From NCBI GenBank assembly GCA_000004985.1, contig GG738860.1: DNA of 64,000 nucleotides, one strand, 5' to 3'. The DNA is from Naegleria gruberi (taxonomy: Eukaryota). The position numbers were made by a program, and so were the translations under genes. Shown one piece after another: positions 11,297 through 13,741 of this stretch. How positions within the stretch are numbered: the stretch's first letter is position 1; each line of letters opens with the position of its first letter. The notes beneath the pieces are model-generated. The model saw nothing but the letters and a program-made list of their open reading frames with translations. It did not search any database and had not been told where the DNA came from.

Positions 11297-13741
11297 ATGG
11301 CCAGAACCAAGCAAACAGCGAGAAAATCGACGGGTGGCAAAGCTCCAAGAAAACAATTGGCTTACAAAGCTAGAAAAGCAAACAGACCTTTCCCTTCCCG
11401 TTCGTTGGCAGGTCCTTTTTCTGATGAGGAAAAAGCAATTTTTGTGAATGGTTTGAAAAGAGCCTTCGATGGAAGTGAAGAATCATCAAAATTTGATGTA
11501 AATACCTATGAAGGAGCTTCACAATTAGTCAAATTTTGGATTTTCCAAGATCAAAAAAGAAGAAAATTGAAACCAATGGTAGAGGAAGCTAAATGGAATG
11601 GCAGCTTTGAATTGCTTCACAATCTTCCTATGGATATCAAGTATGAAATTATTGATTTTATTCCAACCTTTTCCTTGAGAGATTTTTACAAAATCAAGTT
11701 AGACGAATTCACTGAACAGATGAAGCTGGCACAAGTTGAAGATATTTCTAAAATTGTATGCAAAGGACTGAATTTGTTTGAAACCTTTACAAAGAGATCT
11801 TTTCAAAATTTGTACTATTCAGATCCTCTCTATAGAAACTATTACAAGAAGAGACTAATTAACAGAGAATATGCATTAAGAATGAAACAAAGGATATTGA
11901 AGTTGGATGAGTTTGATATTACAGATATTGATTATGATATTGGTTCTGTAAAGAAAGACAAACTATTGCACTTCTTTTCGTTGGTTAAGGAGATGAATGA
12001 AATTGACACTGTTGACTTTAATGATGTGGTCATTCACAGAAATATTGAAAAAATCAAGTCATTGGTAAATGGAACCACCACAAAAAGAAATGAAGATGAT
12101 TACGAGTCACCTTGTGAAGAACCAATGGATGATACTGATTCAATTAGTAATGAGCCTAATGTAACTGTATCATTTGATGAAATGGAGCTACTTTCTGAGG
12201 AAGAAATGAAAAAGTTAGAATCAAAATCTATTGCCATACTGCAGGAATCAGAAAGAGGATATTATAATACTCGTAATTACAATAAGTTTAACAAGCAAGA
12301 TAGTAAATCTTTTAGAAAGCAAGCGATGTATTCGTATGCTATACCATTGGAACTAATAGGAACTGGTGCTATTCCACAAGAACAAAATTTTACTCGTGCC
12401 TTTTCTCACGAAGAGATTATGGAAAGGCTTAAGGAGTTTATTGGAATTAATTCATCCATTAAGAAACTTTCTGTCAGAGGTCTAGATGTCGGCTTTACAA
12501 ACACTGCCATGGACATCTGTAAAGGAATAACAGATCTTTCAATACTTTTATGTGAGTACGTGGATTATTTTGAGTGCTTTAAAGAAGTCCTACCAAATCT
12601 CAACAAGCTGACTATTAATGGAGTTTCTTCTCATTACTCAATTAGTTTTATGGAAAGCTTTATGATTGAGGAATATATTCAACCTAACTGTGTTGTTGAT
12701 TTAGGGTTTGCTACAGGCACTGACACATATTTCTCGGATTTTTTAAATCGTTATGTTGAAGATCAAAACGGTAACAAGACTCCATTGAAAATTACCTCAA
12801 AACTACTCTCAACTGAAAACGTAACCGAATATGCCGACTTTTTATTGAGGTTTATAGAAGGAGTATCTTTCGGCCAATTGTTTTCTGATTTTGATATGAA
12901 AAAGAAATTGGTAGATTACTTGGTAATTGAAGTTGGCATTCCAATTGAATGGCTTACGCTTACCACAAGTGGAGATACTATAATTACAGAATACTTAGCT
13001 TATCTTTCAAATGTTTATCAAAATGGGGCAATTAATTGTCCAAGCTCTATTATGTTACGAGCAGGCTTGATTCCAAATAATATAGCCAATGAATTGGTTT
13101 TTTCTAAATATGAATGGGATGTTGTTGAGTTATGTTTAGATTATTTAAAAAAGAGAGATGATATTGATGACTTTGTTTTGACCCTTAGAAATTTGCTCGT
13201 TTTCTATGTGTGTGATAGAAGTGATTCTCCACTCTTTGAACTATATTGTTACATTAAGAAGAATATTCCAGAAAGTCAATTCAAAGAAATTTTAAAGCCT
13301 ATCAAATGTATCATTCCAGAAGGCTACAAAGAAAAGAACAATGAAACCTTGCATACAGTTTCTATTCCCATCATTTGCTTCCCATTCTCAAATTACCAAT
13401 TCGCTAAAGCTATCGTGGATGATATGACAGACGAAGATTTGAAATTTGTTAATGAGCTTGGTGACTCATGTCTGCACATTTATTCTAGACATGACCATAG
13501 TATTTGGAGTAGAATAGTTGAAAGAGTACCAGAGGTAGTCAAACTCAGCAACCCTGAGGGAGTAACACCTTTACATATTCATACTACCAATATCCAGTCA
13601 TACATATTTGTATTAGACTTGTTGACAAGATTTGGTGCTGACCCAAATGCAAAAGATATTGAAGGAAGAAAAGCTATTGGTGAATTTTTTATATTTGAGA
13701 ATGGTATTTTGAAAGTTAACAACAGATCAATGGAATATTAG
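11297..13741 (+). CDS. histone-H3-tail-mimic protein: N-terminal 22 aa identical to the H3 tail, then an F-box-like motif, a long helical region and C-terminal ankyrin repeats
   Basis: ATG at 11297 gives [28 protein letters not shown]..., which after Met is [21 protein letters not shown] = H3 residues 1-21. It then diverges completely ([18 protein letters not shown]...). The 815-aa ORF is uninterrupted. [24 protein letters not shown] is F-box-like. The C-terminus has [11 protein letters not shown]...[21 protein letters not shown] (ANK). Confidence 0.7.
   Translation: [814 protein letters not shown]

Follow-up and report, generated by a model that had tools for sequence, protein, structure and literature searches.

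An exact histone H3 tail opens a large non-histone ankyrin-repeat protein of Naegleria gruberi and is variably kept in its lineage-specific family

The subject of this report is a single gene in a 64,000-nucleotide stretch of Naegleria gruberi DNA (contig GG738860.1 of assembly GCA_000004985.1), hereafter called the window, whose protein begins with a letter-perfect copy of the histone H3 tail and then continues as something other than a histone. The complete coding sequence occupies 11297..13741 on the plus strand (814 amino acids including the Met, plus stop, from the listing of open reading frames (ORFs) and the raw sequence), and protein residues 2-22, encoded at 11300..11362 (+), are identical to H3 residues 1-21 at 21/21 positions, a match that cannot be due to chance and that brings with it R2, T3, K4, R8, K9, S10, T11, K14, R17 and K18. 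A sequence-only reading of this DNA had pointed to the exact tail with its K4, K9, S10, K14, R17 and K18, to an uninterrupted continuation into unrelated sequence, and to the lack of any H3 fold that would make this a mis-joined H3 gene, and each of these observations held when the gene was followed up. The explanation that I regard as probable is that the protein is an endogenous, whole-tail H3 mimic which links a protein-interaction scaffold to the importins, writers and readers of the H3 tail.

When a human-type H3 was compared with the window by tblastn, it aligned at 11300-11389 with 24/30 identity (E 3e-10); with the full H3 the alignment was limited to H3 residues 1-30, and nothing else H3-like was found in the 64 kb. 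The stretch directly behind the exact copy (11363..11389, +) reads YKARKANRP against TKAARKSAP at H3 22-30 in the same tblastn alignment, a decayed continuation of the tail in which the K27-like ARK motif is partly kept, so that compared with canonical H3 residues 1-21 are identical and 22-30 recognisably related, while the histone fold is missing: a Pfam scan of the protein gave no histone domain (PF00125), and none appeared in its AlphaFold model or in fold searches. That model was built with a 39-sequence family alignment and reached a predicted local distance difference test score (pLDDT) of 73.9 and a predicted template modelling score (pTM) of 0.71, whereas an alignment of 7 sequences gave a pLDDT of 42 and an unusable model. 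The protein is not an H3 and, at 814 amino acids, cannot enter a nucleosome. Its N-terminus is Met-Ala, and the A-R-T-K at residues 2-5 would put R and K at positions 2 and 4 of a mature protein, at the true N-terminus, if the initiator Met is removed and Ala1 exposed as in H3. Residues 1-41 are predicted by AlphaFold to be disordered, giving the tail together with a leash of approximately 40 residues.

The gene itself is a real, single-exon N. gruberi gene with a non-histone product of approximately 94 kDa. The first in-frame ATG lies at 11297, the ORF runs uninterrupted to a stop codon that ends at 13741, and an in-frame TGA 14 codons before the ATG (11255..11257, +) closes the frame upstream and makes 11297 the first possible start without splicing. 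No Met codon occurs between M1 and M94, and residues 43-91, which hold the invariant W81, I82, D85 and Q86, are conserved in the family and confidently folded in the model; since these residues precede M94, translation has to begin at M1 and hence to include the tail. The best database match of the ORF is an N. gruberi 'predicted protein' (P0001), 100% identical, although its model ends at 550 amino acids (terminus KFARFLCV) instead of 814. This shorter model implies a 266-nucleotide intron at 12923..13188 (+) (GTAATT...CTTAG) that shifts the frame and removes both the most conserved C-terminal motif of the family and the ankyrin repeats, and it is probably spurious because the unspliced 814-amino-acid ORF aligns with the paralogues and folds confidently: its C-terminal 270 amino acids align with the paralogue P0002 and others, and residues 530-800 have AlphaFold pLDDT values of 80-96.

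The sequence-only reading had proposed looking for relatives that keep the tail in other genomes, and these exist in Naegleria species and Willaertia magna. A first homology search found the N. gruberi paralogue P0002 and six W. magna proteins, all starting with MARTK, with a complete H3 1-21 tail in five of the six W. magna proteins and an exact H3 1-28 in one of them (P0007). The extent of the family was recovered only through an exhaustive profile search, in which a profile lacking the tail was compared with 1.84 billion representatives and gave 237 matches, reduced to 39 representatives sharing the body once generic ankyrin matches had been removed; word-indexed homology searches without the tail returned the self match only, or two proteins when a 20-sequence alignment was used, and a tail-less alignment search of metagenome and viral contigs found no relatives. 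All members with a named source come from N. gruberi (at least 13 loci), N. fowleri, N. lovaniensis or W. magna, the remainder of the 39 being environmental contigs, and judged by locus tags several members lie close together on one contig. A point that goes beyond the sequence-only reading is that the gene is one of a large, lineage-specific family whose members keep the tail to differing degrees, and across the 39 representatives analysed this family appears to be restricted to Naegleria and Willaertia.

The tails of this family form a graded series. Approximately 17/39 representatives begin with an H3-like N-terminus of varying quality, with exact 1-28 or 1-21 tails in Willaertia paralogues and the window gene, H3 1-13 kept in the N. 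fowleri protein P0123 and 1-9 in P0128, and point substitutions inside some tails, such as T6I and K9R in P0009. One clade, made up of P0147 (N. gruberi), P0137 (N. lovaniensis) and P0136 (metagenome), keeps H3 5-18, including K9/S10/K14/R17/K18, while A1-R2-T3-K4 is replaced (MMFTR..., MIR..., MYTRH...), in effect a natural tail variant, 'K9-K18 only', that lacks a free ARTK N-terminus. Among decayed paralogues there are basic tail remnants, MARTRGSIRNNGYPDVTRMAPRKLY in P0125, the closest paralogue of the window gene, and MARIKRGFSFRKSKRKF and MVRTKARRPLIPRS in others, and in further clades of the family the H3 tail is wholly absent. A rough neighbour-joining tree on the body columns places the tailed members in three clades, and the whole pattern fits an old tail that has passed down by vertical descent under unequal decay and constraint.

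The tail is strongly conserved relative to the body. Between the window protein and the Willaertia paralogues P0003, P0004, P0005 and P0007 the tail is identical at 21/21 positions, whereas the aligned bodies share only 23.5-25.6% identity; a tail without a single change between genera, on bodies that have diverged to approximately 25%, argues for selection on the tail for being H3-like, and this comparative support is what the earlier proposal of an H3-tail mimic has gained. An N. fowleri-like contig, obtained from two independent sources (L002/L003, from ENA and Logan), likewise holds tail and body in one continuous ORF with the first in-frame ATG at MARTKQ, and over the first 14 codons it differs from the window gene at 4 synonymous sites and at no non-synonymous one. 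Look-ups of the exact products of P0002, P0007, P0147, P0001 and the window ORF (with either possible start) gave no match. That H3 identity ends at different points among members, and that tails such as that of P0009 carry substitutions, argues for ordinary descent under constraint.

As a control for how often such grafts arise, metagenome contigs were scanned for DNA encoding M+H3(1-21), with at least 122 matches. Among the 122 matches listed, 97 run directly into the histone fold and the other 25 are ORFs of at most 124 amino acids, ending a short way past the tail (at introns or contig ends), so a long non-histone ORF after the tail was found in 0/122 of these listed matches. In viral contigs the scan found 16 matches, of which 14 are ordinary H3 genes, one is cut by the contig end, and one is a non-histone ORF. 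This last, a 145-amino-acid ORF (L132) at 4525..4962 (+) of contig IMGVR_UViG_GVMAG-S-1101168-109_000001, a giant-virus metagenome-assembled genome (MAG), starts with an exact M+H3(1-21) and goes on with AAARIGSFSDYERRLQEVRELQEQ..., through a coiled-coil/acidic segment to a C-terminus that is very basic; Pfam detects no histone fold in it, and its neighbour is a UvrD-type helicase. It resembles the window protein in the exact tail followed by non-histone sequence and differs in being small and in having no similarity to the body of the Naegleria family, and it is an independent second graft of the whole H3 tail and possibly a viral histone-tail mimic. The environmental scan also brought to light that many H3 genes (L007, L032, L060, L096, L114, L115, L117 and others) break off right after K23 (ATK, then V...), K27 or K37. 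Such break points are consistent with introns just behind the tail-coding segment, and introns in that position would make exon shuffling of the H3 tail onto other genes mechanically easy.

The body onto which the tail is grafted can be divided into several parts, all encoded on the plus strand. Residues ~43-258 form a helical domain in the AlphaFold model, much of it at pLDDT 85-95, which holds a family-conserved helix (11525..11566; W81, I82, D85 and Q86 invariant in the 7-sequence alignment, pLDDT ~90) and contains an F-box/PRANC-like motif (residues 104-126, 11606..11674), whose family signature LPxD[IL]KYEIIxFIPT is conserved in 39/39 members, and a second conserved block (residues 182-208, 11840..11920) with the family consensus FHKMRLINKEFNRRMK. 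An acidic low-complexity linker follows (residues 261-335, 12077..12301), with pLDDT <50 and gaps in the alignment, poorly conserved and variable in length within the family, and then a region of alternating short-strand/helix repeats by AlphaFold secondary structure (residues 371-520, 12407..12856) that includes a conserved FIGxNxxIKSL block. Helical repeats occupy residues 530-800 of the model, the helical repeat region starting near residue 530; the most conserved C-terminal motif of the family, consensus QYLxYLxNEYQNGR with near-invariant Y, N, Y and G columns, lies at 12983..13027, inside the 'intron' of the database model, and the C-terminal ankyrin repeats, which the sequence-only reading had also named, lie at 13403..13696 and show the tandem 33-residue helix-turn-helix repeats with the TPLH / GADxN signature. 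Fold searches with the model gave ankyrin matches only, those in BFVD from the ankyrin part only, which leaves the N-terminal helical domain unclassified. A leucine-rich repeat (LRR) assignment for the short-strand/helix region was drawn from predicted secondary structure and was rejected as unproven, since in that region of 10 members no Pfam LRR family matched at E<=1. The Pfam scan also gave no signalling or death domain in the window protein.

The F-box deserves separate treatment, as the sequence-only reading had proposed both an F-box-like motif and the targeting of an SCF-type (Skp1-Cullin-F-box) ligase to chromatin modifiers. What stands is the conserved LPxD[IL]KYEIIxFIPT block, with a repeat domain (ankyrin) C-terminal to it as in SCF substrate receptors; a full F-box, taken as a domain of approximately 45 amino acids above the curated threshold (PF00646, PF12937, PF09372), is unproven. 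The best Pfam values were E 0.005 for PRANC (17.5 bits against a cut-off of 25.8, matched in 3/25 members), E 0.048 for F-box (14 bits against 20.5, 2/25 members) and E 0.2, below cut-off, for F-box-like (1/25 members). An hhalign comparison with 10 approximate F-box sequences covered 21 columns at a probability of 17.5% and P 0.0014; the signature motif resembles the first F-box helix only, and a profile search of PDB sequences gave no F-box protein. The second block of P0149 matches positions 19-35 of the Pfam F-box model (E 0.049), and block 2 could be a displaced last F-box helix that a variable insert has split from block 1. This split F-box was not adopted, as none of the artificial constructs with the insert deleted reached the Pfam threshold. 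With the F-box only sub-threshold, the earlier SCF idea is not established, and a role in an SCF-type or other cullin-RING ligase through a minimal F-box is possible but unproven.

The nearest published concept is that of the H3 N-terminal mimicry proteins (H3TMs), which include VRK1, BCL11A/B, SALL, FOG, PCLAF and others (Chen et al., 2021; PMC8166343). The human class is defined by M-Z-R-x-K alone, the rule being a Met followed by a small residue that permits its excision (A, G, S, C, T, P or V), and such M-[small]-R-x-K N-termini engage PHD/Tudor readers and NuRD and can be methylated at 'K4' by H3K4 methyltransferases in vitro (PMC8166343). Like them, the window protein is a non-histone protein whose extreme N-terminus mimics the start of H3 after Met removal, and its M-A-R-T-K fits the rule. 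However, H3TMs are metazoan transcription regulators that share approximately 4 residues with H3, whereas the window protein carries 21 consecutive residues (28 in Willaertia P0007), with K4, K9/S10, K14 and R17/K18 together, on an unrelated scaffold of a heterolobosean family. Other H3-like peptides in non-histone proteins also engage histone writers or readers, as do the ARTK automethylation site of G9a and the ARSK of influenza NS1. The K27M-like peptide of EZHIP, NOP16 and the H3K9-like motifs of SETDB1 are similar in that an H3-like peptide reportedly engages or inhibits histone writers or readers. All of these short mimics copy one modification site in 4-6 residues and are usually internal or C-terminal, in contrast to a whole tail at the true N-terminus, and the statement in the sequence-only reading that known mimics such as G9a and NS1 copy only 4-6 residues is broadly right.

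Two further comparisons are useful. The 'histone-like' N-terminus of PCLAF/PAF15 and the H3K9-like motif of LIG1, both UHRF1 ligands, are endogenous H3-tail-like peptides read by an H3 reader, and residues 1-34 of the window protein give a weak match to the Pfam PAF 'PCNA-associated factor histone like domain' (E 0.26); membership of PAF was rejected, the match being sub-threshold and explained by shared H3-likeness, with no PIP box or other PAF feature seen. PRANC proteins pair a truncated F-box with ankyrin repeats. With F-box and poxviral ankyrin/PRANC proteins the window protein shares an LPxE/D-hydrophobic-xx-I-hydrophobic motif followed by repeat domains, although in the poxviral proteins the ankyrin repeats are N-terminal and the PRANC C-terminal, the reverse of the order here, and the match to PRANC covers only part of the model (positions 71-94 of 97) and is sub-threshold. 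A full-text literature search for Naegleria with H3 mimic, F-box or ankyrin gave no account of this family or of any whole-H3-tail non-histone protein in Heterolobosea.

How might such a mimic act? Removal of the Met would expose the exact H3 1-21 on the disordered leash of approximately 40 residues, where it could be recognised by factors that bind the free H3 tail, namely import receptors, methyl, acetyl and phospho writers and erasers, and PHD/chromo/WD40-type readers. The mimic would then tether these proteins to the partners of the scaffold, either sequestering them or handing them over to an effector, which, less certainly, may be a cullin-RING ubiquitin ligase reached through the minimal F-box. 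That decayed paralogues keep a basic, M-A-R-T-K/R-rich N-terminus suggests that nuclear targeting is the minimal function shared by the family, and that full H3 mimicry may be an added function retained in a subset of it.

Some points weigh against whole-tail mimicry and deserve to be set out together. Many members are wholly tail-less, which means that the scaffold can do its work alone, and repeated gene conversion from H3 genes, instead of purifying selection, may maintain the identity of the tail. I infer both the expression of the gene and the removal of its initiator Met, and the tail was compared with canonical H3 on the assumption that N. gruberi's own H3 carries the canonical 1-21. 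As for the scaffold, residues 371-520 look LRR-like by predicted secondary structure, and the F-box, with all of its Pfam matches below the gathering cut-offs, is an unproven lead rather than a result.

The H3 tail functions as a nuclear localization signal (NLS), and the strongest competitor to mimicry, which I consider possible though fairly unlikely, is that the tail serves as nothing more: H3 1-28 would be kept because it works well as an import and basic signal, its exactness would follow incidentally from descent or from gene conversion now and then, and neither readers nor writers would matter. Decayed tails do stay strongly basic (MARIKRGFSFRKSKRKF, MVRTKARRPLIPRSRNKRRNNKR, MQKRALQKSKSGMKRK), as a constraint for an NLS alone would leave them. 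Yet an NLS tolerates many substitutions, and five proteins in two genera keep all 21 residues on bodies that are approximately 25% identical, including the non-basic T3, Q5, T6, S10, T11, G12, G13, A15, P16, Q19 and L20, while the separate clade that keeps 5-18 and not 1-4 looks like conservation of modification and reader sites.

Recombination offers a neutral account, in which these genes acquired the 5' end of an H3 gene, or receive copies of it time and again, through ectopic recombination or gene conversion, and identity reflects recency rather than function. I find this improbable. The occurrence of members in local clusters favours recombination, and 10/14 codons are identical between N. 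gruberi and the N. fowleri-like sequence, which could be codon bias or homogenisation, but synonymous differences are present where the amino acids are identical. Moreover, the tails are spread over three clades and four species, decay by degrees and carry internal substitutions, which speaks for an old feature, and H3 identity that ends at 9, 13, 21 or 28 with gradual decay beyond is unlike recent conversion tracts.

It is also conceivable, though I would put it no higher and perhaps slightly lower than the recombination account, that the tail is the integrated bait of an immune-type sensor, a decoy that intercepts H3-targeting pathogen effectors while the repeat scaffold signals or destroys them, analogous to the integrated decoys in plant nucleotide-binding leucine-rich repeat (NLR) receptors. 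The targets would be bacterial SET-domain methyltransferases or other effectors and viral histone-tail binders or proteases, with the variant tails (5-18 only, 1-13 only) perhaps tuned to different effectors. The family is lineage-specific, expanded, fast-evolving, partly clustered and equipped with repeat domains, and Naegleria and Willaertia are reported to host Legionella and giant viruses; in addition, the giant-virus MAG with its own H3(1-21) fusion shows whole-tail mimicry in the same ecological arena. All of this is circumstantial, however, with no signalling or death domain detected, and ordinary F-box-like adaptor families, too, typically expand and diverge. A weaker suggestion still is a cell-intrinsic 'tail-state reporter', a soluble pseudo-substrate whose modification state would mirror global writer and eraser activity and feed back through a ligase.

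Finally, an artefact, with the tail coming from a separate H3 transcript or a misassembled junction, or with translation starting downstream, is very improbable, for although an assembly gap of 491 N (10453-10943) lies 354 bp upstream of the ATG and the 3' end of the database gene model is in error, the ORF lies clear of the gap, the join of tail and body is continuous both here and in the independent N. fowleri-like assembly, no H3 fold is present anywhere in the window, and the conserved residues 43-91 need M1. An assembly chimera and an H3 mis-join were rejected because the same architecture recurs in N. gruberi, N. fowleri, N. lovaniensis and Willaertia magna, whose assemblies are independent, with multiple models of the last three showing it. 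Whole-tail mimicry stays the reading that I prefer.

The surroundings of the gene can be described briefly. The window is gene-dense, with approximately 34% G+C and long uninterrupted ORFs. The 491-N gap interrupts a PTH2-type peptidyl-tRNA hydrolase gene (9968..11029, minus strand) that adjoins the H3-tail gene upstream, and further assembly gaps lie at 1395..1444 (50 N) and 53328..54811 (1484 N). The convergent downstream neighbour (13835..17467, minus strand) encodes 1210 amino acids with WD40 beta-propeller matches (EML-type) and a long, charged, K/E-rich heptad-like region, and appears to resemble flagellar WD40/coiled-coil proteins. Beyond it lies a pair of ORFs on the plus strand (18195..18668 and 18809..20470), in which a 553-amino-acid ORF begins in the middle of a protein-kinase domain (Pfam Pkinase positions 178-263) and continues with WD40 repeats, and the 157-amino-acid ORF before it may supply the upstream exon of a kinase-WD40 gene split by an intron. 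On the other side, an ORF at 6160..7539 (+) carries a UVSSA N-terminal domain (E 5e-21) and is a homologue of UV-stimulated scaffold protein A, which acts in transcription-coupled repair.

Histone mimicry has been known in the form of short motifs, and here an entire, letter-perfect H3 tail is found across genera on a soluble, non-nucleosomal protein. The finding sets a database gene model right and outlines a previously unannotated family of more than 35 representatives, which, if the tail is functional, also provides a natural series of tails (1-28, 1-21, 1-13, 5-18 and decayed) for dissecting the contacts made by readers and writers. Histone-modification proteomics (bioRxiv 10.1101/2021.11.30.470311) and chromatin immunoprecipitation sequencing (ChIP-seq) data sets exist for N. 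gruberi, and under the same condition work on Naegleria chromatin would face the caveat that neither antibodies nor tail peptides in mass spectrometry can separate these proteins of approximately 75-110 kDa from H3. Likewise, with a functional tail, recognition of the free H3 tail would have a physiological role away from chromatin, and the family may offer a route to sequester, degrade or guard chromatin regulators in a deep-branching eukaryotic lineage that includes the pathogen N. fowleri.

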